The notes below the pieces were generated by a model. That model worked only from the letters and a program-made list of their open reading frames with translations, had not been told where the DNA came from and ran no database searches. Below are positions 5,152-37,914 of a stretch of 64,000 nucleotides of DNA, piece after piece. How positions within the stretch are numbered: position 1 is the stretch's first letter; every line of letters begins with the position of its first letter. This DNA comes from Pseudomonadota bacterium (GTDB taxonomy: Bacteria; Pseudomonadota; Gammaproteobacteria; Burkholderiales; Methylophilaceae), in the NCBI GenBank assembly GCA_029781535.1, contig JAKOWL010000214.1, positions 5,550-69,549 on the forward strand, read 5' to 3'. Made by a program: the position numbers and the translations under genes.

Positions 5152-6258
5152 ATGAGCCTTTGTGATTTAGCCCCCGATTATATTCGTGCAATTGCGCCTT
5201 ACCAGGGCGGAAAGCCTATCAGCGAACTGGCGCGCGAGATGGGACTGAATGAAGCCGATATCGTTAAGCTGGCTTCGAACGAGAATCCGCTAGGCATGAG
5301 CCCTAAGGCGCAAATGGCAGTGGAAGATGCGATTGCCGATATCGCACGTTATCCGGATGGCAACGCGTTTGCCCTGCGTGAGGCGGTGAGCAAGAAATAC
5401 GGGGTGTCGGCCAATCAAATCGTGTTCGGCAATGGTTCCAATGACATTCTGGAACTTGCGGCACGAGCCTTCTTGCAACCGGGAGACGAGGCGATTTATT
5501 CGCAGCATGCATTTGCCGTTTATCCGCTGGTTACCCAGGCGGTCGGGGCAAAAGGCGTGGTAGTGCCAGCCATAGGTTTTGCACATGATCTGGATGGCTT
5601 TTTACAGGCCATCACTTCAAAAACTAAACTGATCTTTATCGCGAACCCAAACAATCCGACGGGTACGCTGATTAAAAAAGATGCCCTGAAAGCCTTTATT
5701 CATGCGGTCCCTGAGCATGTTCTGGTATTGCTGGACGAGGCATACGACGAATATTTGAACGAGGTTGACAAGTCAGAGGCTGTTAACTGGCTAGCACAGT
5801 TCCCGAATTTGATCATTTCACGCACTTTTTCCAAAGCCTATGGTCTAGCAGGATTGCGGGTAGGCTTTGGTCTGATGCACGCTGAGATTGCAGACATCAT
5901 GAACCGCGTGAGACAGCCGTTCAATGTCAACAGCATAGCGCAGGTGGCAGCTATCGCGTCATTGGCCGATGATGACTTTGTCGCGCGCAGCTATGCCGCC
6001 AATCAGGCTGGGATGGTGCAATTGGCGCAGGGTTTACATGAATTGGGGTTAGAATACATTCCTTCTTTTGGCAATTTTGTCAGCTTTAAAGTGAAAAACG
6101 CTGCTCAGGTGAATCAACAACTGCTAAAAGGCGGCGTGATAGTGCGACCCATCGCCAATTATGAGATGCCTGATTACTTGCGCGTGAGCGTCGGGTTATT
6201 CAGCGAAAATGCCAAGTTCCTGCAGGTATTGAAAAAGATTTTAGAAGCAAACGCATGA
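5152..6258 (+). CDS. hisC: Histidinol-phosphate aminotransferase (class II aminotransferase)
   Basis: PLP-Lys motif SRTFSKAYGLAGLRVGF and an NPNNPTG motif. The ORF track starts at TTG 5140, which overlaps the pheA stop. ATG 5152 is preferred. Confidence 0.9.
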   Translation: MSLCDLAPDYIRAIAPYQGGKPISELAREMGLNEADIVKLASNENPLGMSPKAQMAVEDAIADIARYPDGNAFALREAVSKKYGVSANQIVFGNGSNDILELAARAFLQPGDEAIYSQHAFAVYPLVTQAVGAKGVVVPAIGFAHDLDGFLQAITSKTKLIFIANPNNPTGTLIKKDALKAFIHAVPEHVLVLLDEAYDEYLNEVDKSEAVNWLAQFPNLIISRTFSKAYGLAGLRVGFGLMHAEIADIMNRVRQPFNVNSIAQVAAIASLADDDFVARSYAANQAGMVQLAQGLHELGLEYIPSFGNFVSFKVKNAAQVNQQLLKGGVIVRPIANYEMPDYLRVSVGLFSENAKFLQVLKKILEANA

Positions 6259-7337
6259 CCAAATACGAAAAACTCGCTACGGATGACGTAAGAATCCGTG
6301 AAATCAAACCGTTGGTACCAGCTTCGGTAATGTTGGAGCAGCTAAAAGAAAGCGCTCAGACTACCCAGAATATTCTGGCGACACGTAATGCCATCCATCA
6401 GATACTGCACCATGGTGACGACCGTCTGTTGGTTGTGGTCGGGCCATGCTCCATTCATGACACAAAGGCTGGAATGGAATACGCGCAGCGCCTGTTGGAA
6501 GTGCGTAAACGCCTGTCGGCGGACCTGCTGATTGTCATGCGGGTGTATTTTGAGAAGCCGCGCACCACTGTAGGATGGAAAGGGCTTATCAATGACCCGG
6601 ATCTGGATGGCAGTTATGAGATCAACGAGGGTTTGCAGAAGGCGCGTCAATTCCTGCTGGATGTGAATGAGATCGGTATGCCGGCTGGCGCAGAGTTCCT
6701 GGATACCATCACGCCGCAATATACCGCCGATTTGGTCAGCTGGGGTGCAATCGGGGCACGGACGACAGAATCTCAGGTGCATCGTGAGCTGGCTTCTGGC
6801 CTAAGCTGCCCGGTCGGTTTCAAGAACGGTACGGATGGTAATGTACGCGTGGCGATTGATGCGATTAAGACGGCATCGAGTCCGCATCATTTCCTGTCCG
6901 TGACCAAGGAAGGGCAGTCAGCCATTATTTCTACATCTGGTAATGAGGATTGCCATGTCATCCTGCGTGGCGGAAAAGTGCCGAATTACGATGCCGCAAG
7001 TGTCGATGCTGCCTGCACCAGCCTGGCATCCGCCGGTTTGGCGCCGCTGCTGATGATTGACTGTAGCCATGCGAACAGCAGCAAGCAATATCAGAAGCAA
7101 ATCGAAGTCGCACACGATATCGCGCAACAGGTGGGGCAGGGTGATGAGCGTATCATCGGTGTGATGCTAGAGTCTCATCTAATGGCGGGACGTCAGGATC
7201 ATGAGCCTGGCTGCACGCTGGAGTATGGCAAGTCGATTACTGACGGCTGTCTGGGTTGGGAAGAGACTGTGCCAGTCCTGGAATTGCTGGCTGAAGCCGT
7301 CCGTACACGCCGGAAAGCAAAAATCGAATCTGAGTAA
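6255..7337 (+). CDS. aroG: Class I (AroG/F/H-type) 3-deoxy-7-phosphoheptulonate (DAHP) synthase
   Basis: 360 aa with KPRTTVGWKGLINDP, GARTTESQVHRELASGLSCPVGFKNGTDG and HANS motifs. ATGA overlap with hisC. Feedback specificity cannot be told from the sequence. Confidence 0.93.
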   Translation: MTKYEKLATDDVRIREIKPLVPASVMLEQLKESAQTTQNILATRNAIHQILHHGDDRLLVVVGPCSIHDTKAGMEYAQRLLEVRKRLSADLLIVMRVYFEKPRTTVGWKGLINDPDLDGSYEINEGLQKARQFLLDVNEIGMPAGAEFLDTITPQYTADLVSWGAIGARTTESQVHRELASGLSCPVGFKNGTDGNVRVAIDAIKTASSPHHFLSVTKEGQSAIISTSGNEDCHVILRGGKVPNYDAASVDAACTSLASAGLAPLLMIDCSHANSSKQYQKQIEVAHDIAQQVGQGDERIIGVMLESHLMAGRQDHEPGCTLEYGKSITDGCLGWEETVPVLELLAEAVRTRRKAKIESE

Positions 7338-7617: not shown

Positions 7618-8544
7618 ATGCATATTCATGTTTTGGGTTCCGGAGCCGGCGGAGGCTTCCCACAATGGAACTGTAACTGTTTTAACTGTGACGGCTTGCG
7701 TAAAGGCACCATTAAAGCCACCAAGCGCACACAATCTTCCATTTGTGTCAGCAGCGATGGAGTGAACTGGGTTTTGTTCAATGCTTCTCCGGATGTACTG
7801 CAGCAGATTCAGGATTTTCCTGCTTTGCAGCCTGCGCGAGCGATACGCGACAGTGGCATTCAGGCAGTCGTTCTGATTGATGCGCAAATCGACCATACCA
7901 CGGGTTTGTTCATGTTACGTGAGGGCACAGTCAAGCGCGATATCTATTGTACCGATATGGTATATGGCGATTTGACCTCTGGTAACCAGATACTTAACAT
8001 TCTCGGCCATTACTGTGGCATCAATCACCATCAGGTCCCTATCGATGGTAAAACCAGTTTCGAGATGCCGAATGTGCCAAACCTGCGCTTTACCACTGTC
8101 GCACTGAAAAGTGCTGCACCGCCTTATTCACCGCATCGCAATAATCCACAGGCTGGAGATACGATAGGCGTTTTGATCGAAGAGATATCGACTGGCAAGA
8201 AATGCTGGTATTCCCCAGGGTTGGAGCTGATCGAACCGCATTTGCCTGCTTTGATGCATCAAGCAGACTGCATTATGGTGGATGGCACCTTCTGGACAGA
8301 TACCGAGATGATTGATCTGGGCTTGATGACTAAAACGGCCCGAAGCATCGGCCATAATCCGCAGTCCGGCTCCAATGGCATGATTGAGGACCTGGATAAG
8401 TTTGGTCAGGATAAGAAAGTTCGTAAGGTATTGATTCATATCAATAATACAAACCCGATTTTACGCGAAGATTCTGCAGAGCGTGCAATTTTAACCCGTC
8501 ATGGCATTGAAGTCGCCCATGATGGAATGGACATTATTCTTTAG
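7618..8544 (+). CDS. pqqB: PQQ biosynthesis protein B (metallo-beta-lactamase fold)
   Basis: 308 aa with N-terminus MHIHVLGSGAGGGFPQWNCNC, typical of PqqB, and the expected operon position. Confidence 0.95.
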   Translation: MHIHVLGSGAGGGFPQWNCNCFNCDGLRKGTIKATKRTQSSICVSSDGVNWVLFNASPDVLQQIQDFPALQPARAIRDSGIQAVVLIDAQIDHTTGLFMLREGTVKRDIYCTDMVYGDLTSGNQILNILGHYCGINHHQVPIDGKTSFEMPNVPNLRFTTVALKSAAPPYSPHRNNPQAGDTIGVLIEEISTGKKCWYSPGLELIEPHLPALMHQADCIMVDGTFWTDTEMIDLGLMTKTARSIGHNPQSGSNGMIEDLDKFGQDKKVRKVLIHINNTNPILREDSAERAILTRHGIEVAHDGMDIIL

Positions 8545-8553
8545 GAGTGAAAC

Positions 8554-9327
8554 ATGAATGCAATGACAACTGATAACTTACCTTGGTCCCGTGAAGAGTT
8601 TGAGGCGAAACTGCGTGAGAAGGGCAAGAGTTATCACATTTACCACCCGATTCATGTGTTGATGTATGAGGGTAAACTCAGCCAGCAGCAAATGCAGTGC
8701 TGGGTGGCTAACCGTTATTACTATCAGATTGCCATTCCAATGAAAGATGCAGCGATTCTGTCAAATTGCCCGGATCGTGAATTGCGTCGTGGCTGGATAC
8801 AGCGCATTTTTGACCATGATGGCAGTGGCAAGATTGCCGAGGGCGGCGAAGGTGGTATTGAAGCATGGATCCATCTGGGCCACGCTGTCGGTTTGACCCG
8901 TGAAGAAATCATGTCTTTGAAGTTGATCGCACCTGGGACGAAATTTGCAGTAGACGCCTATATCAATTTTGCCAAACAACGTCCTTGGCAAGAAGCAGTA
9001 TGCTCCAGCTTGACTGAACTATTCGCGCCGCATATCCACCAACAACGTATTGATTCTTGGCCGGATATGTATCCATGGATCAATCAGGAAGGCATGCAAT
9101 ACTTCAAGAACCGTCTCACACAAGCGCGTCGTGACGTAGAGCAGGGCCTGCAAATCACATTGGATTACTTTGGCCGTACTCGCGAGTTACAAGAGCGTGC
9201 CTTGGAAATCCTGCAGTTCAAATTGGATGTGCTGTGGGTAATGGCGGATTCCATCATGTTGCAATGCACAGATGTGACTACTGAAGGGCGTCCATATACA
9301 CGTCAGCCTGTGGTTGAGATCAAATAG
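8554..9327 (+). CDS. pqqC: Pyrroloquinoline-quinone synthase
   Basis: 257 aa, TENA/THI-4-like PqqC sequence (YHIYHPIH..., NRYYYQ) at the expected operon position. Confidence 0.95.
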
Positions 9328-9333
9328 CCAACC

Positions 9334-9615
9334 ATGAGTATGATACAAGCAACAGATATTTACGCATTAGCACTACATCACCGCTTCCAATGGGAAGAGG
9401 CACAGCAAAGCCATGTGATTTTGTTTCCTGAAGGGATGATCAAATTACATGGTGGCGCGGGCGAGGTCATTAAACGTGTGAATGGCAAAGCAACAGTAGG
9501 GGAAATAGTGGCAGAGTTAAAAGCTGCTTTTCCCGATGCTGAAGACATCGAAAATGACATCCTCGGCATGTTTGATCTGGCGCTAAGTAAAGGTTGGTTA
9601 AGGAAGGTGAGTTAA
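9334..9615 (+). CDS. pqqD: PQQ biosynthesis peptide chaperone PqqD
   Basis: 93 aa, lying between pqqC and pqqE. The stop abuts the pqqE ATG. Confidence 0.92.
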   Translation: MSMIQATDIYALALHHRFQWEEAQQSHVILFPEGMIKLHGGAGEVIKRVNGKATVGEIVAELKAAFPDAEDIENDILGMFDLALSKGWLRKVS

Positions 9616-10797
9616 ATGACGCAAGTCAATAACGGTGTGGCATCCAATGTGACTAAAACCCAACCATTATGGTTGTTGGCAGAGATTACCTATCGATGCC
9701 CGATGCATTGCGCTTTTTGTTATAACCCGACGGATTATGACAAACACACCAAGAATGAGTTGAGTACGGAAGAATGGGTTAGTGCTTTGCGTGAGGCGCG
9801 CAAGATGGGTGCCATACAGCTTGGTATATCAGGTGGCGAACCATTGCTGCGCGATGATATCGAAGAAATCGTCGCTGAAGCGCACAAACTTGGCTATTAC
9901 AGCAACCTGATTACCTCCGGTGTCGGGCTGACTGAAAAACGCATACAAGCTTTCAGGGAAGCCGGGTTGGATCATATCCAGCTCTCGATGCATGACATTA
10001 CCGAAGAAATCAACAATTTCATCACTAATACCAAAACGTTTCAGCTCAAACAAAAAGTAGCAGCGATGATCAAGGGGCATGGCTACCCCATGGTGTTAAA
10101 CGTTGTGATACATCGTTATAACATCGAGCATATTGGCCAAATCTTGGAAATGGCCGAAGCGCTGGGTGCCGATTACGTCGAGTTGGCCAACACGCAATAC
10201 TACGGCTGGTCTTTGGTCAACCGTAGTCAGCTAATGCCGACCCGTGAGCAACTTCAAGAGGCCGAACGTGTGACAAATGTATTTCGTGACCGCGTTGGCA
10301 GCAAGATGAAAGTATTTTTCGTTGTGCCAGATTATTACAACGATCGTCCGAAAAAATGCATGAACGGCTGGGGCGAGGTGTTCATGATAATCACGGCAAA
10401 CGGCGATGTGCTGCCTTGCCATTCTGCACGCTCCTTGCCGGGTCTCGCGTTCCCCAATGTGCGCGAGAACGGCCTGGAATGGGCATGGAATGAAAGCCCG
10501 GCTTTCAATAAATATCGTGGTACAGAATGGATGAAAGAGCCGTGTCGTAGTTGCGATGAGAAAGAGAAGGATTTGGGCGGGTGCCGTTGCCAGTCATATC
10601 TATTGGCAGGTGATGCTGAAGCGGCAGACCCGGTTTGTACCAAATCACCACATCGGCATTTGATTGATGAGGCGATTGCGGATGCGCAAAATCCACAGTT
10701 GCGCGAGCAACCCATCATTTTCCGCAACGATAAGAACTCCAAGAAATATGTGGAAGGCGATAAAGAACGTATTGAACAGTTCCATGCCTTGCCGTAG
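9616..10797 (+). CDS. pqqE: PqqA peptide cyclase, radical SAM/SPASM enzyme
   Basis: 393 aa with the CxxxCxxC motif (CPMHCAFC) and a C-terminal SPASM cysteine cluster (CHSA..., CRSC..., CRCQ). Confidence 0.96.
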   Translation: MTQVNNGVASNVTKTQPLWLLAEITYRCPMHCAFCYNPTDYDKHTKNELSTEEWVSALREARKMGAIQLGISGGEPLLRDDIEEIVAEAHKLGYYSNLITSGVGLTEKRIQAFREAGLDHIQLSMHDITEEINNFITNTKTFQLKQKVAAMIKGHGYPMVLNVVIHRYNIEHIGQILEMAEALGADYVELANTQYYGWSLVNRSQLMPTREQLQEAERVTNVFRDRVGSKMKVFFVVPDYYNDRPKKCMNGWGEVFMIITANGDVLPCHSARSLPGLAFPNVRENGLEWAWNESPAFNKYRGTEWMKEPCRSCDEKEKDLGGCRCQSYLLAGDAEAADPVCTKSPHRHLIDEAIADAQNPQLREQPIIFRNDKNSKKYVEGDKERIEQFHALP

Positions 10798-29994: not shown

Positions 29995-31680
29995 TTAATG
30001 TTCAGGATGTTCCAGCTTAAGCACAGCTTGTGCGAAGAGGCTGCGCCATTGCGAGGCGAGGGTGGTGACATCGCTTTGGCTGTTAAGTTTACCTTCATGC
30101 AGACTATAACGCGCAGCCGTGTCGTTGGGTAGACCAATTTGCGCAATCAAAGTTGGTAACTGTTCGGCAATGTTCCTGGCATCAGCTAATGCGGCTTCAG
30201 CATATTCGGTATGGTTGTCGGCATATAGCCAGCTTATCACGAGCATGTCGGTGAATAATCCCCAGATGCCGCTTTGTGTGCCATGGATGAACTCGATGCT
30301 GTTAGGGGTGCGGCTGCAGAGCTCTATGGCGCGTCTCAGTTTCTTCAATGTGCCGTCATCCAAGGCTTCCTGGCTTTCAATCAAGATAGGCATGATCAGT
30401 GCTGCGGATGTTGTATCGCCGGATTTGACGCCAAAGGCTAACCAGCGTTGCAGGGCGCGGTCATTCGCCAATGCGTAAATCTTGGCAATCCCGAAGAATG
30501 CGACCGCCCATGCAATGGGGGCAGTCAGGTCGAAATAGGTATTGCTCAGGTTGATTCCGGCATATGAAAGCACCAGCATGCCGATTTGGCTGCTAGTAAA
30601 GATGGTGTTGAAGCGGTCTCGGTCGACATTGAAATAAAACGCCAACGTGGCTGCCCATATCAGTAGCAAACTCATTAAGATATAAGGAATTTTTCCTCGC
30701 CAAACTTTCAGGTAGTCGCGATGTTTCACATTGTCGATCGCAGTGGCCAGAATCTCCACGCCCGGGAATTGTTTATCCATCGCTGTAGGCTTGATATCAA
30801 AAAGCCCAGGTGCGGTAGAACCGATGATCACGATTTTGTTGCTGAACTCGTTTTGTGGACGCTTTTTGACTTTGCTGCTCAAATCAGTAAACACGTCGCT
30901 AAAGGTAACGTAGTTGTAGCTGAACGGTTTGCCACGCCAGTTGATCAGCATGTTCTGTGGCAAGGGAAGGCTGTTCATCTGAGTGAATTCGCCCACCTCC
31001 AAAGGTAATGATGGTAATTCCCAGCCAGCATTTTCATGCCAAAGCCGATATTCACGCACGATGCCGTCGTTGTCTGGATATACATTATGTGTACCGATAC
31101 GATGAGGGCGTAATGCGGCTTTGAAATAGGGGAGTACAGCGGCCAACGTAGCATTCTTGTCTGCATCTGACCCAGGTTGCAGGCCAGGAATCTGGGTATA
31201 TTTCAGTCTGCTTAGCTTGTCCTGCGAGGCGTCCAATCGCAGAATCGGGAAAAAGCAGTTGTCGCAGGAGCTAATTACCTCGTTGAAATAAGCATCACTA
31301 TCTTCATTGTAGATATCGGCGTCACTGAACACGATATCGAATACGATGGCTTTTGGATTTTGCGCTTGTATATTCTCGACGAACTCTCCCAGAACCTGTC
31401 GCGGCCACGGCCAGCGTCCATAATCTTTAGCCATGTCTGCCAGACTGGCCTCGTTAATGTCGACAATAACTATGTCAGGATCGGCTTTTGGGGTTAACAC
31501 ACGATGTTTGACCATGAAGTCAAACGCCTTGTCGCGCATATTGATGCCGATATGAAAAACACCCGCATCCAGTAATACAAGTAAAGTAAAAAATGTCGCC
31601 AGATATATATAGAAATTGTTCTTAAGCTTGCGCGTAAGGTTAGCCAGCCATTGGCCAATGATGAGTTTAAGTTTGGTCAT
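29995..31680 (-). CDS. CHASE2 sensor-domain membrane protein with a short uncharacterised cytoplasmic C-terminal domain
   Basis: 561 aa: N-terminal TM, an approximately 300-aa periplasmic CHASE2-like region (VIVDINEASL..., VIIGSTAPGLFD), three TM helices, then about 165 aa with no kinase, GGDEF or intact cyclase motifs. Confidence 0.8.
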   Translation of the reverse strand: MTKLKLIIGQWLANLTRKLKNNFYIYLATFFTLLVLLDAGVFHIGINMRDKAFDFMVKHRVLTPKADPDIVIVDINEASLADMAKDYGRWPWPRQVLGEFVENIQAQNPKAIVFDIVFSDADIYNEDSDAYFNEVISSCDNCFFPILRLDASQDKLSRLKYTQIPGLQPGSDADKNATLAAVLPYFKAALRPHRIGTHNVYPDNDGIVREYRLWHENAGWELPSLPLEVGEFTQMNSLPLPQNMLINWRGKPFSYNYVTFSDVFTDLSSKVKKRPQNEFSNKIVIIGSTAPGLFDIKPTAMDKQFPGVEILATAIDNVKHRDYLKVWRGKIPYILMSLLLIWAATLAFYFNVDRDRFNTIFTSSQIGMLVLSYAGINLSNTYFDLTAPIAWAVAFFGIAKIYALANDRALQRWLAFGVKSGDTTSAALIMPILIESQEALDDGTLKKLRRAIELCSRTPNSIEFIHGTQSGIWGLFTDMLVISWLYADNHTEYAEAALADARNIAEQLPTLIAQIGLPNDTAARYSLHEGKLNSQSDVTTLASQWRSLFAQAVLKLEHPEH

Positions 31681-31726
31681 AGTGTTATATTCTATGACAC
31701 AAATGTGGAATGTTTAAATATACCCT

Positions 31727-32449
31727 TTATGGAGATGGCTGCCGATATTTCAGGAATATATCTTTAATCCAGCCACAGAGGTAACAATTCGTACCATTTT
31801 GGCTTGTTGCGATTGAAAATACGTACCAAAGAATAAAACTGACCGTTATCATTTCCCCGCCATCTTCAATGATGCCAAACAAGAACTTTATTTTACGATT
31901 GAAGCTGAAGATGGAATGTAGCATGTCGACAGCAATTCCAAAGCCAGCCAAAATGAATACCAGGAGCGCAAGGTCGTGAGATGTACTTTTGAAAGTGTCA
32001 GTCCCTTTCCTGTATGCCAGCATAAGCGGTATTGATAAAGCGCTGCCTACGGTTGCTGAAATGGTGAGTTCACCAAAATCCTCAGGTCTAAGTCCCATAT
32101 AAGACTGAAATTGCAAGCTTTTTGATAGCGCAAGACCTGCTAACTCATGTATCTGCACAGAATCATCGGCCAAAAAATAAGCAAAGAGGATAAACCAGGC
32201 TGAATAATGCCAAGTGTCGTCCCTGATTTGGATGTAAATCAATAACAAACAAATCCAGAACAACTTCATGTATCCATAGAATTCCGAATAGCTATGATCA
32301 AATTCGATACTGTAGATGGGGATGTGATGCAAGAATGCGTTTACGATGTGGATAATGATATAAGCGGCATCTCCGCTCAGCAGCAAAGTCAAGAGCGCTA
32401 ACGCACCGCGATCATCCAAACACCCAGTGGTTGTCTTTCCCCTTGCCAT
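31727..32449 (-). CDS. Hypothetical polytopic membrane protein (AT-rich gene)
   Basis: 240-aa ORF with about 6 hydrophobic helices and no recognisable family motifs. Confidence 0.6.
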   Translation of the reverse strand: MARGKTTTGCLDDRGALALLTLLLSGDAAYIIIHIVNAFLHHIPIYSIEFDHSYSEFYGYMKLFWICLLLIYIQIRDDTWHYSAWFILFAYFLADDSVQIHELAGLALSKSLQFQSYMGLRPEDFGELTISATVGSALSIPLMLAYRKGTDTFKSTSHDLALLVFILAGFGIAVDMLHSIFSFNRKIKFLFGIIEDGGEMITVSFILWYVFSIATSQNGTNCYLCGWIKDIFLKYRQPSP

Positions 32450-32699: not shown

Positions 32700-33470
32700 T
32701 CATGGTGCCCGCTTGCAATGCATTTCATGTGCATTGTAGCCCCAAGTGATCAAAGCTTCACTTCCATGCAACAAAAAGATCTCATTGCGGCCTTGGTATC
32801 TGGTTTCCTTAGTGCTGGGCTCCAGGTACATCAACGATGTGGTGTCTCCGCGTTCGGCAATCAGCGTTGGAGGATCTGTCATGAAGAAGGTCGTAATGAC
32901 TTCATTGGCTGGGTTGCCATCACAGGTGTAACGGGCCGGGCCATCGCTGAGGACAAGACGATAGGTAGCCTGTAGTTCAGCGATGCGGCGCACATACTCG
33001 CGCTTGACACATCCGCGTTTATCGCTATCTTTCCAGCATTCGTCTCGTCCTTTGATCCAGCCTCTCTGCATCGCTTTGAGTACCGGCGGACGTTCGTTCA
33101 CCGCTTTCTTGGATGCGCTGGCATAGACGTCTGCGAGTTTTCGGTCGAGAGCCGATAGTTCCTCGTCGCCGCAGACCATTGCATCGATGCTTCCAGTCTT
33201 GGCTTTGCTGCAGTCAAACGAAGGGCCTGTCATTTTTGCCGATTTGCCAGAACCTGCGCTTGCTGTAGAGGAGTTGTTGGCAGGTGCATTAGAAACAAAA
33301 CCGGCCTTGGCATTTTCTTCTTTGGTCTTGGTAATGTCACAGCCTTGCGCCTCTGAAACTTGCGTACAGCCGGAACGCTCGAGTTGTTGCCTATATTTTG
33401 CGTTGATCGCATAGGCGGAATTGTGTGCTAACAGAACAACACCTGCAGCAATAATCAATTTTGTCTTCAT
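32700..33470 (-). CDS. Secreted LprI (DUF1311) + MliC two-domain protein, putative lysozyme inhibitor
   Basis: Signal peptide (MKTKLIIAAGVVLLAHNSAYA), a DUF1311-like helix pair (LDRKLADVYASASKK...MQRGWIKGRDECW), and a C-terminal MliC-like beta domain (YTCDGN...VITTFF). Confidence 0.75.
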   Translation of the reverse strand: MKTKLIIAAGVVLLAHNSAYAINAKYRQQLERSGCTQVSEAQGCDITKTKEENAKAGFVSNAPANNSSTASAGSGKSAKMTGPSFDCSKAKTGSIDAMVCGDEELSALDRKLADVYASASKKAVNERPPVLKAMQRGWIKGRDECWKDSDKRGCVKREYVRRIAELQATYRLVLSDGPARYTCDGNPANEVITTFFMTDPPTLIAERGDTTSLMYLEPSTKETRYQGRNEIFLLHGSEALITWGYNAHEMHCKRAP

Positions 33471-33585
33471 ATTGTTGTGGCCTTTCTAAAGAATGGTAGT
33501 TTAGATAAATTAAATGGATTTAATTTAAAGTGCAATACTTAAATGTTTATGCCAACAAATCATGTGAGTGGCGAACTGAGGATAG

Positions 33586-34113
33586 TTAGCCATGCTTTTT
33601 TAATGCCAGTATCCTGAGGAGCTTTTTGCTGCGCGCCTTCATGGCGAGAGTACCGATAATGGAAAGCTCTTCGATGTGTTGTTTAATCTCGGGTAGAAAA
33701 CGGTGGCTACGGAGTGCAATGTCAGCTAAGGCTTGCATGGACATGGTTTTTACGATGCTGCTGCGGTCGTTAGTGTAGCTAAGCAGCAAATTCACTACGG
33801 TAGTTTCTTCGACATCTGTCAAAGGCAAGCGAGCCAGCATTGGGGCAACATGCCAGCGGACTTCTTGTTGTTCAACCTTCGTGAGGCGATTCAATATGGT
33901 TTCCTTGAAAGGAACCAGAAGGTCGGGACGCTTGACCGTGATTTTCTCGATTGCGTCAGCACAGCGCATACGCAGTACTGGATCGGAGGTTTCAATTCCC
34001 TGAAATAGAACACCGATTAACTCAGGATTTTCAAGAACGGCTGATGCCGCACGGTTTGATTCTCCAACGGAACGCCGATCACCTCCAGCGAGAATCTTCA
34101 GTAACGGGTGCAT
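33586..34113 (-). CDS. Array-terminal cassette-like ORF: small all-helical HEAT/ARM-repeat-like protein, function unknown
   Basis: 175 aa. The ATG lies 7 nt after the attC core GTTAGGC. Repeat-like amphipathic helices. No canonical attC downstream. Confidence 0.7.
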   Translation of the reverse strand: MHPLLKILAGGDRRSVGESNRAASAVLENPELIGVLFQGIETSDPVLRMRCADAIEKITVKRPDLLVPFKETILNRLTKVEQQEVRWHVAPMLARLPLTDVEETTVVNLLLSYTNDRSSIVKTMSMQALADIALRSHRFLPEIKQHIEELSIIGTLAMKARSKKLLRILALKKHG

Positions 34114-34120
34114 TGGTAAT

Positions 34121-34178
34121 GCCTAACGTTTGAATTAAGGGGCGCCGTTAGGCGTCCCGCTTGATGGATGGGTTGGGC
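34121..34178 (-). repeat. attC recombination site (58 bp): R'' GCCCAAC ... R' GTTAGGC read on the minus strand
   Basis: Read on the minus strand: GCCCAAC-CCATCCATCAAGCGGGACGCC...GGCGCCCCTTAATTCAAAC-GTTAGGC. It starts 4 nt after the stop of the upstream cassette ORF. Confidence 0.85.
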
Positions 34179-34182
34179 ATCA

Positions 34183-34698
34183 CTATTTACCTTTGGCCTG
34201 ACTAACTTTACTTAGGGCAAGTGCGCGCACGGAATCTAGGCAGCCTGCCGCTTTGAGTTGGGCGAGAGGAATGCAGTGAGCACGAGCTGGAGCAATGAAG
34301 AAAAACATAAAACTACCTGACTCAGCTACCTTTTGAACCGCAGCCCATTTTATGGACATTGTGAAAGCCTCCCCGGAGGCGTGAATACCTTCCGGGCCGA
34401 ATGAATAAATAAATGGCCCTTGTGCAAGAGGATTGCGGCGGCGAGCAAGAAAAAGAGAAAGTACAGTAACCAGTGGCGTAAAAAAGAAACAGAGCAGTAA
34501 CAGTCCAATGTTGCCCAATGTTATTGGGTGATTGTGAGTAAGCCAAAGGTATAGCAAAAAAAGACCGGTAACGGGAAACACGGAGGAGATAACGAGCTGG
34601 AACGGCGAGCGAAGAATAACCTGCAAGGTTGCACGGTATGCTGTCCAGAAAGGAAATGAAATTGGCGCTGTAATTTGTTCTTGCATCAAACTCTCCAT
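34183..34698 (-). CDS. Integron cassette ORF: YcxB-like membrane protein (two N-terminal TM helices plus a small C-terminal domain)
   Basis: 171 aa from ATG 34698. The track start 34707 is a TTG inside the attC core. Bounded on both sides by attC sites. Confidence 0.75.
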   Translation of the reverse strand: MESLMQEQITAPISFPFWTAYRATLQVILRSPFQLVISSVFPVTGLFLLYLWLTHNHPITLGNIGLLLLCFFFTPLVTVLSLFLARRRNPLAQGPFIYSFGPEGIHASGEAFTMSIKWAAVQKVAESGSFMFFFIAPARAHCIPLAQLKAAGCLDSVRALALSKVSQAKGK

Positions 34699-34701
34699 AA
34701 T

Positions 34702-34774
34702 GCCCAACGTTGGACATGAGGGGCGCGCAAAAAGCGCAGCTTTTGGGGCGTCCCGCTCGATGGACTAGTTAGAG
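34702..34774 (-). repeat. attC recombination site (73 bp): R'' CTCTAAC ... R' GTTGGGC read on the minus strand
   Basis: Shares TCCATCRAGCGGGACGCC and GCGCCCCT blocks and both core sites with the 34121-34178 site. R'' overlaps the stop codon of cassette ORF 1. Confidence 0.85.
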
Positions 34775-35283
34775 CGGAATACATTTTTGACCACCTCCTT
34801 GGCTGGCTCTAAGTAGTCAAGAAGCTGCAACACAGTGAGCAGCGATGCCAATGCCGTAATGATGTAGATGACTCCCTTGATTACGCGGCCAGCTAACGAT
34901 TCTTCGGCCTTTTGGCGATTGAAGCCAGCACGACCGATAAGTACAAAAGGAATTCGAGCCACCAAGTCGAAGACGAGACCTACATAGAAAAATGGATTGA
35001 TTGCCCGTCGGAATGCTGGACCAGCGTTGTTTTCGTAGATGCCGATTGCGCGATCTATGAAATCGAGGAGGTTGTTAGGTGCTATGTGAAAGCGATGCAA
35101 ATTGAAAATGTTTTGAACAAGGTCGATGTTCTGGATATACCCACCAACTGCTGGCGGCGGTGTGTACTGGATTGATGGGTTAACGCCTGCATACAAAATG
35201 ATGTCGTGAATTCCATCCATCATTCGATTGATTTTGACTCTGGCTTCTTCGGCCTTCGGTTGTTCAATTCGTTCATCAACCAT
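34765..35283 (-). CDS. Integron cassette ORF (first cassette): hypothetical protein with two C-terminal TM helices
   Basis: 172 aa, no recognisable family. Lies between the candidate attI and the first attC. Confidence 0.7.
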   Translation of the reverse strand: MVDERIEQPKAEEARVKINRMMDGIHDIILYAGVNPSIQYTPPPAVGGYIQNIDLVQNIFNLHRFHIAPNNLLDFIDRAIGIYENNAGPAFRRAINPFFYVGLVFDLVARIPFVLIGRAGFNRQKAEESLAGRVIKGVIYIITALASLLTVLQLLDYLEPAKEVVKNVFRSN

Positions 35284-35399
35284 TCATTCGGCACGGCTGT
35301 TGTTGAAGTACTCAATTACTAGAACCCGAAATTCAGCAAGCCTGTTGAGGCGGCTGTTATTCTCCCAAGGCAATATCTTTGTGTAGTAGGTCATCTAGG

Positions 35400-35433
35400 C
35401 GTTGTTGGTGATTGGCTCTAACGTAAAGTAGGC
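35400..35433 (-). other. Candidate attI region, with putative crossover core GTTAGAG at the reverse complement of 35416-35422
   Basis: The only GTTRRRY-type core between the candidate Pc and the first cassette ORF. No experimental or comparative support. Confidence 0.35.
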
Positions 35434-35462
35434 ATCCTAATTGACGGAAAGTTTTCCGTCAA
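35434..35462 (-). promoter_or_regulatory. Candidate cassette promoter Pc: TTGACG-N17-TAGGAT on the minus strand
   Basis: -35 is the reverse complement of 35457-35462 and -10 is the reverse complement of 35434-35439, with an exact 17-nt spacer. It fires toward the candidate attI and the cassettes. Confidence 0.45.
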
Positions 35463-35544
35463 AGGTGCTTTTTTTGTTGTAAAAATGTAAATAATTCTTA
35501 ATGTTTTCATATGGTTAATTATTTTTAGTACATCCTAAAACATT

Positions 35545-36543
35545 ATGGCTGATACATCAAATTTCGGGTCGCCTAAATTGCTGGATATCGTGCGCGGTAA
35601 AATCCGTTTAAAGCACTATAGTATTCGCACCGAGCAGGCTTATGTAGATTGGATTAAACGCTATATTCTACATTTTGACAAGACACACCCTAGGGATTTG
35701 GGTGCAGCAGATGTGGAGGCGTTTTTGACGTATTTGGCGGTGCAGAGCAAGGTCTCTGCCAGCACGCAGAATCAGGCCAAAAGTGCTTTGTTGTTTTTGT
35801 ATAAAGAGGTGCTGGGCATTGAGTTGCCTTGGCTGGATAAGGTGCAAAAGGCCAAAGCACCCAAACGCTTGCCTGTGGTGCTGGCTAAGGATGAGGTGGC
35901 ACGCATTCTCAATCGTCTGGAAGGTACTAATTATTTGGTGGTGAGTTTGCTTTATGGCACTGGTATGCGTATTTTGGAGGTGTTGCGCCTGCGGGTGAAG
36001 GATATTGATTTTTCCCGCAAGGAGATTTTGATCCGCGATGGCAAGGGCTTTAAAGATAGGGTGACGATGTTGCCGGTTTCGCTGGTCAAGCCTTTGCAGG
36101 CGCATATGGAGAAAGTTAAAGGCCTGCATGAGGCAGATTTGGCCAATGGGTTCGGTGAGGTGTATTTGCCTAACGCATTGGAGAAAAAGTATCCTTATGC
36201 CGCGCGTGACTGGGCTTGGCAGTACGTATTTCCATCTGCCAGATTGTCGGTTGATCCGCGCGGTGGTGGAACTCGGCGGCATCATGTGCAGGATCAGGCG
36301 ATTCAGCGCGCTGTGCGGCAGACAGTGGTGGATGCAGGCATAACCAAGCCTGTCACACCACACACTTTTCGCCATAGCTTTGCCACCCATTTGCTAGAGA
36401 GCGGGTACGATATTCGCACCGTGCAGGAGTTGCTGGGGCACAGTGATGTGAGTACGACGATGATTTACACACATGTGCTGAATAAGGGCGGCAGGGCTGT
36501 TGCCAGCCCGCTGGATGTTATCGGCACATTAGGGGTGATCTGA
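35545..36543 (+). CDS. intI: Integron integrase (tyrosine recombinase, IntI family)
   Basis: 332 aa with catalytic R (GMRILE), HxxR ([12 protein letters not shown]), H and Y ([14 protein letters not shown]). Carries the IntI-specific insertion [38 protein letters not shown]. Confidence 0.92.
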
Positions 36544-36678
36544 AGCTGCAAGAAAAATCATGAACGCTCGTCATGGCATGTAAATGCGCTTACAAAATGT
36601 TGACTCGAGCGCGCACTAATATTCAGGAACGTATAATAAACTGCCTGTTTGCTATCATTGCTCGGTTATAATTCTTTC

Positions 36679-37914
36679 ATGTTGAATCTACTTATTTCCC
36701 TTGCAATATTGCAGGTTCTGATTTCAGTTTTACTGGCTTGGCGTGTTTTTAGAAATACATCTGAAACCAAGCTGTTGCAGACACTTGAAGAAAAGCACCG
36801 CGCGATGCTGCTGGATATAAACGACAGCTTGAATAGGCTTGGAGACCGCATCCAGCTTGCCTCACAGGGCAGTGCAGATTTGCTGAAAAATAGTGTGACG
36901 CAAGAGCTGAATGCGACGCGTGATGCGATGCATGGCCTAAGGCTGGCACAAACCGAGAATATGTCCAGAAACCGCGAAGAGCTGCTGGAAAAACTCAACG
37001 CTACTTTCGAGTCGCTGAGCAAGACAGTAGAAGGGCGTCTGGATCTGATCAGCGGCAAGGTCAGCGAGCGCCTGGATGAAGGGTTCAAGAAAACCAACGA
37101 GACGTTTGCCAATGTGATGGCACGCTTGGCGACTATCGATGAAGCGCAGAAGAAAATCGATGGCTTGACGACGAACGTAGTGAGCCTGCAGGAGCTTCTG
37201 GGCGACAAGCGCAGCCGCGGCGCGTTTGGCGAGGTGCAGCTGGAAGGTTTGGTGCGTAACGTGCTGCCAGCTAACAGCTTTGCCATGCAGCATACGTTTG
37301 AGAACGGTACGCGAGTGGATTGCGCGCTGTTTCTGCCAGAACCGACAGGAACAGTGGCGGTGGACAGCAAATTCCCGCTGGAGAACTACAACCGCATGTT
37401 CGACCAGGCTCTGAGTGAACCGGAACGCGCGCAAGCTAGCAAACAGTTCAAGACCGATGTGAAAAAACATGTGGACGATATTGCCAGCAAATACATCATC
37501 CCGAATGTCACGAGTGACGGCGCGGTGATGTTCATTCCGGCTGAGGCAGTGTTCGCGGAGATTCACGCCTATCATGGCGAGATTATCGAATATGCCATGA
37601 ACAAGCGCGTTTGGGTGGTGTCTCCTACTACATTGATGGCCGTATTGAATACGGCACGCGCCGTGCTGAAAGATGTCGAGATGCGCAAGCAGGTGCATAT
37701 CATCAAGGATGAATTAGGCAAGCTGGCCAAGGATTTCGAGCGTTTTGATGTGCGGATGAAGAAACTGGCGGACAATATCCGTCAGGCACATGAGAACGCA
37801 CAGCAGGTGCACATCAGCAGCCAGAAGATTTCGCGACGCTTCGCGCAGATCGAACGTGCAGAGATTGGTGTGGCAGAGACAGATATGTTAGACGATGTTA
37901 TTGATGATAAATAA
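36679..37914 (+). CDS. rmuC: DNA recombination protein RmuC
   Basis: N-terminal TM, a long coiled coil, and an RmuC nuclease-like C-terminal domain (GAFGEVQLE..., DSKFPLENY). ATG 36679 is preferred over the track's TTG 36649. Confidence 0.88.
   Translation: MLNLLISLAILQVLISVLLAWRVFRNTSETKLLQTLEEKHRAMLLDINDSLNRLGDRIQLASQGSADLLKNSVTQELNATRDAMHGLRLAQTENMSRNREELLEKLNATFESLSKTVEGRLDLISGKVSERLDEGFKKTNETFANVMARLATIDEAQKKIDGLTTNVVSLQELLGDKRSRGAFGEVQLEGLVRNVLPANSFAMQHTFENGTRVDCALFLPEPTGTVAVDSKFPLENYNRMFDQALSEPERAQASKQFKTDVKKHVDDIASKYIIPNVTSDGAVMFIPAEAVFAEIHAYHGEIIEYAMNKRVWVVSPTTLMAVLNTARAVLKDVEMRKQVHIIKDELGKLAKDFERFDVRMKKLADNIRQAHENAQQVHISSQKISRRFAQIERAEIGVAETDMLDDVIDDK

Follow-up and report, generated by a model that had tools for sequence, protein, structure and literature searches.

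Results

An integron integrase gene lies beside a divergent array of three cassettes

A 64,000-nucleotide stretch of a Methylophilaceae genome (GenBank assembly GCA_029781535.1, contig JAKOWL010000214.1, positions 5,550 to 69,549 of the forward strand; hereafter the window, numbered from its first letter) carries a small integron locus, in which an integrase gene (intI) on the plus strand lies next to a divergent array of three gene cassettes on the minus strand. The locus had been picked out in a preliminary description made from the sequence alone, several claims of which are taken up below. Its features are as follows (attC scores are those of the covariance model R1 described below; aa, amino acids).

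35545-36543, plus strand: intI, encoding an intact 332-aa integron integrase (TIGR02249, Pfam and alignment to the Vibrio cholerae integrase VchIntIA)
36175-36288, plus strand: the IntI-specific additional domain (ALEKKYPY...RRHHV, residues 211-248), gapless against residues ~205-242 of VchIntIA
35416-35439, minus strand: attI core region, with the block CTAACGTAAARTAGGCATCCTA kept beside intI in relatives
34708-35421, minus strand: cassette 1, 714 bp, bounded by the attI crossover and attC1
34765-35394, minus strand: cassette-1 gene, a 209-aa family of unknown function, with a TGA at 35284-35286
34702-34774, minus strand: attC1, CTCTAAC...GTTGGGC, 73 bp (40.8 bits, E 9.5e-9, full length)
34127-34707, minus strand: cassette 2, 581 bp, bounded by attC1 and attC2
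34183-34698, minus strand: cassette-2 gene, a YcxB-like membrane protein (Pfam YcxB, E 2.5e-9)
34121-34178, minus strand: attC2, GCCCAAC...GTTAGGC, 58 bp (55.1 bits, E 1.4e-12, full length)
33556-34126, minus strand: cassette 3, 571 bp, its 5' boundary within 2 nt of the breakpoint in contig L093
33586-34113, minus strand: cassette-3 gene, a 175-aa HEAT-repeat protein (Pfam HEAT_2)
33550-33591, minus strand: attC remnant, GGCTAAC...GTTGGCA, 42 bp (8.7 bits, E 3.8)

The product of 35545-36543 is an integron integrase. Against the TIGR02249 'integron integrase' model it scores 491.4 bits (curated cutoff 265) in a single stretch covering model positions 1-314/315, whereas with the XerC and XerD models, whose cutoffs are 330-335 bits, it scores ~152 bits in a match split into two stretches, which is what an inserted domain would give. 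Pfam recognizes Phage_int_SAM_4 and Phage_integrase, and the equivalog model NF011946 gives 395 bits, under its cutoff of 435. The best match among solved structures is V. cholerae IntI4/VchIntIA (PDB 2A3V; E 3.8e-89, residues 11-324), and the sole gap in that alignment is a single residue outside the extra segment. Residues R142, K167, HxxR, H and Y of IntI align with the catalytic R135, K160, HxxR, H and Y of VchIntIA, and the equivalent of VchIntIA W219 is kept within the additional domain as W225. The gene is full length, with every catalytic residue present and no frameshift, and its product is 80-81% identical to integrases of Methylobacillus arboreus and Methylotenera. A look-up for proteins identical to it returned no entry. 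The preliminary description had credited the 332-aa recombinase with all tyrosine-recombinase catalytic residues and with an extra segment that separates integron integrases from XerC/D enzymes; the alignment to VchIntIA bears out both points, and the intI-specific profile search that it had proposed gave the same answer.

A covariance model finds two attC sites, both in cassette orientation

With the IntI protein as query, a scan limited to one genome for each species yielded 80 related loci, in which candidate attC sites were picked by a core-motif-plus-hairpin scan. The density of these candidates is ~9x higher upstream of intI than downstream of it (247 in 294 kb versus 57 in 612 kb). For training we aligned 29 distinct attC sites, taken from other genomes only, leaving out all window sequence as well as a Methylophilaceae attC family that is near-identical to attC2. 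In the R-box and L-box pairs of this alignment 93.8% of the cells are paired and 47 cells are changed on both sides, values reached by none of 500 shuffles (0/500), and slid controls of the same pairing collapse. The covariance model built from the 29 sites, R1, was then searched against the whole 64-kb window with filters off. It returned attC1 and attC2 and no third significant match over the 64 kb (the next best has E 1.7), together with a partial match of 13.9 bits on the opposite strand of attC2 itself. These are the two imperfect palindromes with RYYYAAC...GTTRRRY cores that had been noticed at the outset and for which scoring by an attC model had been suggested; both are present, and a model trained independently of the window scores both. 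The core-motif-plus-hairpin scan, when run on the window, found attC2 alone, missing attC1 because of the weak R-box pairing of that site, and the covariance model was used instead.

On its bottom strand attC2 has as its minimum-energy fold the canonical hairpin with a bulged T and a bulged G, and the bottom strand of attC1 forms the L box and the terminal stem with three bulged bases. The sequence of attC2 is near-identical to that of attC sites in the arrays of Methylobacillus arboreus and Methylotenera.

Homology breakpoints place the cassette boundaries at attI and at the attC cores

On the minus strand beside intI the sequence reads ...CTACTTTACG|TTAGAGCC, with the crossover at G35422|T35421 (G|TTAGAG). 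Cassette 1 is 90.2% identical at the nucleotide level over 722 bp to positions 5972-6692 of contig L098, where it is likewise bounded by core sites. This homology begins at window position 35423, the 5' partner being attI in the window and another attC in L098, and it stops at 34702, in the R' core of attC1. Because the shared segment is bounded at G|TTAGAG, with the intI-proximal block upstream of it, the arrangement is the expected footprint of insertion at attI. The attI site thus adjoins intI, and cassettes appear from these alignments to be inserted at its G|TT. The span of about 34708-35421 originally proposed for cassette 1 coincides with the breakpoints against L098.

The boundary of cassette 2 is marked by a much closer relative. 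Contig L093 matches 4970 bp of the window (34129-29160) at 98.6% identity, a span that takes in the HEAT-repeat gene, an MliC/LprI gene, the gene for a 240-aa membrane protein and a CHASE2 gene. The identity ends at the attC2 core, ACG|TTAGGC, at window position 34129, which is 2 nt short of the G|TT crossover. Past the break, cassette 2 is absent from L093, and in its place stand another attC, of 87 bp and 32.9 bits, and the end of another cassette, which encodes a membrane protein. A break at the attC2 core implies cassette exchange after the split between the two strains. Of the limits given for cassette 2 in the preliminary description (34127-34707), 34127 lies within 2 nt of this breakpoint and 34707 agrees with the break at attC1, and all three 5' junctions proposed there are confirmed.

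Cassette 3 lies at the far end of the array. Its HEAT-repeat family is widespread, with 1767 homologues detected in many phyla, and in contigs L096 and L097 a homologue forms part of a long array of small genes that all run in one direction; behind it comes an attC of 50.9 bits, with the stop codon of the gene falling within its R'' core. When the corresponding site in the window is compared with intact attC sites, the R'' core GGCTAAC (with the TAA stop) is kept, a gap of ~32 nt takes the place of the 5' stem arm, and the L' box, the spacer and the R' core GTTGGCA follow. We considered whether 33550-33591 could be a short working attC and ruled this out on its score and E-value and because it does not fold, the canonical structure having an energy of -0.4 kcal/mol. 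Since its attC is without the 5' stem arm, cassette 3 is no longer excisable; it appears to be stranded and to mark the fixed end of the array at ~33556, in line with the start coordinate first given for the locus. The low score of this site agrees with the earlier remark that the third gene begins 7 nt after an attC core and has no canonical attC of its own.

Cassette 1 carries a nonsense codon and has homologues in other attC arrays

The cassette-1 gene starts at 35394, 27 nt past the attI crossover. It has an in-frame TGA at 35284-35286 where all close homologues (209 aa, 86-97% identical) have a Trp codon (TGG), and an ATG stands directly after the TGA. The gene may therefore yield a 172-aa C-terminal product only, or nothing, and the TGA itself could be a sequencing error. 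The preliminary description had reported three minus-strand open reading frames with essentially no spacing or ribosome-binding sites. The three reading frames are present, but in the second an internal ATG is preceded by a GGAG-like ribosome-binding site, and the first begins at the start codon given above. Pfam and defence-system scans of the 209-aa family gave no match, nor did PADLOC for any of the cassette proteins.

Homologues of cassette 1 are flanked by attC sites in the unrelated contigs L098, L099, L101 and L102. In L098-L101, at ~5900-7200, they belong to a series of three attC sites, and none of the genes called up to 6 kb away in either direction is an intI. Genes for RadC, DUF6573, a TrwC relaxase and a Type ISP restriction enzyme are found nearby. 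This arrangement looks like an attC cluster without an integrase (CALIN) in or beside a conjugative element.

A conserved palindrome and a candidate promoter separate attI from intI

Two further features lie at or beside attI, on the intI side of the array.

35441-35462, no strand given: perfect palindrome TTGACGGAAAGTTTTCCGTCAA (TTGACG-N10-CGTCAA), between attI and intI
35434-35462, minus strand: candidate cassette promoter (Pc), TTGACG-17 nt-TAGGAT, found by promoter scan with 9/12 matches, on consensus only

The 123-bp spacer between attI and intI is conserved among Methylophilaceae integrons. The palindrome occurs once in the 64 kb. Its TTGACG-N10-CGTCAA arms are conserved in seven Methylophilaceae integrons with a variable spacer, one of them having TTTACG...CGTCAT, and the motif is found upstream of intI in L001, L002, L007, L008, L086 and L087. 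It may be the binding site of a regulator overlapping the -35 hexamer of Pc, or supply promoter -35 elements, or both. The candidate Pc faces the array, with one arm of the palindrome supplying its TTGACG and its -10 hexamer ending 12 nt before the attI crossover; both hexamers and their spacing are kept in aligned relatives. On this evidence TTGACG-17-TAGGAT is the best Pc candidate and probably drives the array. No LexA box (CTGT-N8-ACAG, with up to 2 mismatches) was found upstream of intI.

The platform occupies a conserved chromosomal position with variable contents

The locus is flanked by genes that are conserved in relatives.

36649-37914, plus strand: rmuC, the flank on the intI side (Pfam RmuC, E 2.4e-65)
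29995-32449, minus strand: the CHASE2 gene and the 240-aa membrane-protein gene, the flank on the array side, in the same order in L081/L082 and L093

To place the locus among its relatives we compared the contigs that carry the nearest RmuC homologues. The closest by RmuC (92%), L081-L084, have a CHASE2 gene, a gene for a 244-aa membrane protein, a GDSL-lipase gene and rmuC, and neither intI nor attC at this locus; in L081/L082 the CHASE2 protein is 85% and the 240-aa membrane protein 66% identical in amino acid sequence to its counterpart in the window. In L085-L088 (RmuC 90.3%) an intI (88.7% identical, in L086) lies directly upstream of rmuC, and the array holds two other cassettes, encoding a 116-aa protein and a DUF2695 protein, with attC sites of 49-59 bits. 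L089-L092 (RmuC 89%) and L031 (RmuC 84-86%, a Methylophilus metagenome-assembled genome) have intI, a MazE/Fic toxin-antitoxin pair and rmuC, again with other cassettes. The spacer between intI and rmuC is common to the window and L086, and homology with the integron-free L081 resumes at a promoter-like TATAAT of rmuC.

We found no transposase, Tni or resolvase genes and no inverted-repeat boundaries beside the platform. The cassettes do not differ from the window in GC content (0.48), and Rfam and tRNA scans of the window were empty, so that there is no tRNA-linked island signature. Taken together, these comparisons indicate a platform that is chromosomal and, as a platform, non-mobile, with contents that vary. 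The comparison of cassette content across relatives that had been proposed as a check thus revealed turnover, with a different cassette past attC2 in L093 and entirely different cassettes in L085-L088.

Between the array and the CHASE2 gene lie two genes that make the flank less simple than the preliminary description had it, namely a platform set between a CHASE2 operon and rmuC. Both flanks are indeed conserved, but the 240-aa membrane-protein gene (31727-32449) and the MliC/LprI gene (32700-33470) intervene. We rejected the former as a cassette, there being no attC signal near it, and assign it to the backbone because it adjoins the CHASE2 gene in the integron-free relative. The MliC/LprI gene, also with no attC signal near it, is present in L093 and absent from L081.

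Several observations on the neighbourhood can be added. The multi-pass membrane protein of 31727-32449, without a family match, is encoded at a GC content of 0.42 (0.485 for the window). Where the window has the MliC/LprI gene and the integron, L081 has the GDSL-lipase gene, at 8441-9931; a GDSL-lipase cassette of similar size is flanked by attC sites in L096 (4331-4981), and the L081 gene might for this reason be a stranded cassette. In L031 the single cassette lies between two copies (9117-9250 and 9669-9880) of an internally palindromic direct repeat of ~100 bp or more, which give identical open-reading-frame fragments (MALCAMRTCARVDERMF...); the attC model gives only a partial match, of 24.7 bits, right beside the first copy, and the repeat may represent either a miniature repeat element or an attC of unusual length. 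L085-L088 also have a small DUF559/MTES_1575 (Vsr-like endonuclease) gene between moaD and moaE (for example L086 3633-4001) that is absent from the window.

Different integrase lineages occupy the slot upstream of rmuC

An intI gene is found in the same slot upstream of rmuC in L031 (10001-10969), L089 (8164-9192), L086 (894-1961) and the window (35545-36543). These genes fall into three lineages whose integrases are 68-70% identical pairwise, each having nearer relatives in other genera than in the other two lineages, whereas the RmuC proteins are 84-92% identical. In a further lineage the slot is empty. Divergence is congruent in the window/L086 pair only (IntI 88.7%, RmuC 90.3%), and the nearest relatives of the L031 and L089 integrases are in other genera. 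We tentatively suggest, as a possibility that we rate somewhat below even, that this slot is a hotspot in the Methylophilus-like clade, in which whole platforms (intI with attI) have been swapped or acquired independently. The three-lineage comparison is one of pairwise identities between metagenomic contigs. If the suggestion is right, integron platforms, beyond their cassettes, would be exchanged by homologous recombination through conserved flanks.

Discussion

Our findings are best explained if the locus is a small chromosomal integron that is complete and probably active, of the soil/freshwater betaproteobacterial type, and lies directly upstream of rmuC in a Methylophilus-like (Methylophilaceae) genome, an explanation that we hold with high confidence. 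The Methylophilus-like placement draws on the identity of the flanks to those of the L031 genome and on the RmuC matches. The integrase is identified by profile and alignment, two attC sites and the position of attI are defined, the boundaries of the cassettes coincide with breaks in homology, cassette 1 recurs in other arrays, and near-identical strains differ in content. In the mechanism that we envisage, IntI would recombine the folded bottom strand of an incoming attC with attI, with the crossover at G35422|T35421, so that new cassettes would enter at the first position, and recombination between two attC sites would excise cassettes. The array, divergent from intI on the minus strand, would probably be transcribed from TTGACG-17-TAGGAT upstream of attI, and comprises the 209-aa unknown-function gene with its nonsense mutation, the gene for the YcxB-like membrane protein and that for the HEAT-repeat protein. 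Of these points, the present activity of IntI and the identity of the promoter are inferred.

Several points weigh against this explanation. The recombination activity of IntI is a prediction from its sequence. The first cassette, which would be expected to be the best expressed, has a stop codon in its gene, a poor fit with recent selection for that gene. The promoter is a 9/12 match to consensus, and such sites are no commoner in the region than in shuffled sequence. At attC1 the R box forms 4/7 pairs on the bottom strand and the minimum-energy fold leaves it open; closing it costs 1.8 kcal/mol above that fold. The attC model is one of our own, distinct from that of IntegronFinder, with training sites picked heuristically by core motif and hairpin, and the contigs used for comparison are metagenomic assemblies.

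The alternative that survives best is a decaying, inactive relic, that is, a once-active platform whose remains are fixed chromosomal DNA in the course of being lost, as happened in the sister lineage with no integron. Several features are in keeping with it: two attC sites still work in what is a very small array, the 5' arm of the last attC is gone and this site does not fold any more, a nonsense mutation interrupts the cassette-1 gene, and neither intI nor attC is found at the locus in the relative closest by RmuC (92%). We nevertheless consider a relic unlikely, since intI is full length with its catalytic residues complete and no frameshift, the attI and promoter block are conserved, and the cassettes of the 98.6%-identical contig L093 differ from the attC2 core onward, a difference that implies recombination after the strains separated.

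Far less probable is a mobile integron, borne on a transposon, plasmid or integrative element and present here by chance. Its small array is like those of mobile integrons, the homologues of cassette 1 lie in attC arrays beside relaxase and RadC genes in a region like that of a conjugative element, and the integron is absent from the locus of the closest relative. No transposase, Tni or resolvase genes or inverted-repeat boundaries stand beside the platform, however; intI abuts rmuC in several sister lineages (with one IntI at 88% where RmuC is at 90%, the others at 68%), the intergenic sequence between intI and rmuC is common to L086, and the GC content matches that of the window. The mobile classes 1-5 in particular are disfavoured by the NF011946 score, which is below cutoff, and by the chromosomal, conserved context. 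A XerC/D-like or phage-type tyrosine recombinase beside chance palindromes or REP-like terminators can be dismissed. Tyrosine recombinases and intergenic palindromes are both common, and the XerC and XerD models do give partial matches of ~152 bits, but those matches lie far below their cutoffs and the integron model far above its own, the attC model is significant at two sites only and in cassette orientation only, and the homology breakpoints fall on G|TT crossovers or within 2 nt of them.

The small chromosomal integron that we favour is of an ordinary kind, and general knowledge of integrons is unchanged by it; what it offers is clean evidence. It is a cleanly delimited and, as far as its sequence tells, probably active methylotroph integron in which cassette exchange between near-identical strains can be seen at base-pair resolution, and it serves as a worked example of insertion at attI, of a cassette swap at attC and of a terminal cassette stranded by decay of its attC. 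Wider interest is limited to the unrelated intI alleles in the same slot of sister lineages, which suggest platform replacement.

Comparison with known integrons

The preliminary description held that such elements are little studied in methylotrophs. This was overstated, as the integron of Methylobacillus flagellatus KT and its cassettes were characterized in 2008, with its intI placed in a mainly betaproteobacterial clade (PMC2426708), and the same integron was included in a 2011 survey of SOS regulation (PMC3108266). Given that an integron of the same family was described in 2008, the one in the window is of an already known kind. Like the betaproteobacterial chromosomal integrons of M. flagellatus KT (from the same host family, Methylophilaceae), Dechloromonas aromatica and Nitrosomonas europaea (intI 'clade 2'; Nemergut et al. 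2008, PMC2426708), it has an array that runs away from intI and cassettes that are for the most part hypothetical. Its array is much smaller, 2 attC sites being functional here where the arrays of M. arboreus (L002) and Methylotenera (L008) have at least 12 and at least 10 detected sites, respectively, and its chromosomal site is unlike all the Methylotenera and Methylobacillus loci compared, none of which share its flanks.

To VchIntIA the integrase is alike in fold and in sequence over residues 11-324, in its catalytic residues and in the extra domain with W219; it differs in having, in the alignment, Arg in place of W157. The extra domain of IntI reads extrahelical attC bases. The V. cholerae superintegron holds well over a hundred cassettes, whereas the window has three, with heterogeneous attC sites and no LexA box upstream of intI. 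The chromosomal integrons of Xanthomonas and Pseudomonas stutzeri, studied by Gillings in 2005 and Holmes in 2003, reportedly occupy a fixed locus with lineage-specific cassettes and have been lost or have decayed in some lineages. As is reported of those integrons, the one described here keeps the same position across related lineages with lineage-specific cassettes and is absent from one lineage; set against those reports, the rmuC slot holds three intI lineages that are 68-70% identical where RmuC is 84-92%.

A sedentary chromosomal integron, as Cury and colleagues are said to have defined it in 2016, has >19 attC sites and/or is present in most genomes of a species. The element had been called sedentary at the outset, and its fixed chromosomal location stands, with intI beside rmuC in L085-L088, congruent divergence and no transposition genes near; its array, with two functional attC sites and one remnant, is by contrast small, and the closest lineage by RmuC (92%) is without an integron, so that the name fits in part only. 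The same authors reportedly apply the term CALIN to an attC cluster without an integrase, which the surroundings of the cassette-1 homologues in L098-L101 resemble in having three attC sites and no intI among the genes within 6 kb. The locus in the window has an IntI with the additional domain, attC sites on the cassette strand, an attI and a cassette content that varies between relatives and, because both intI and attI are intact, it counts as a complete integron rather than a CALIN.

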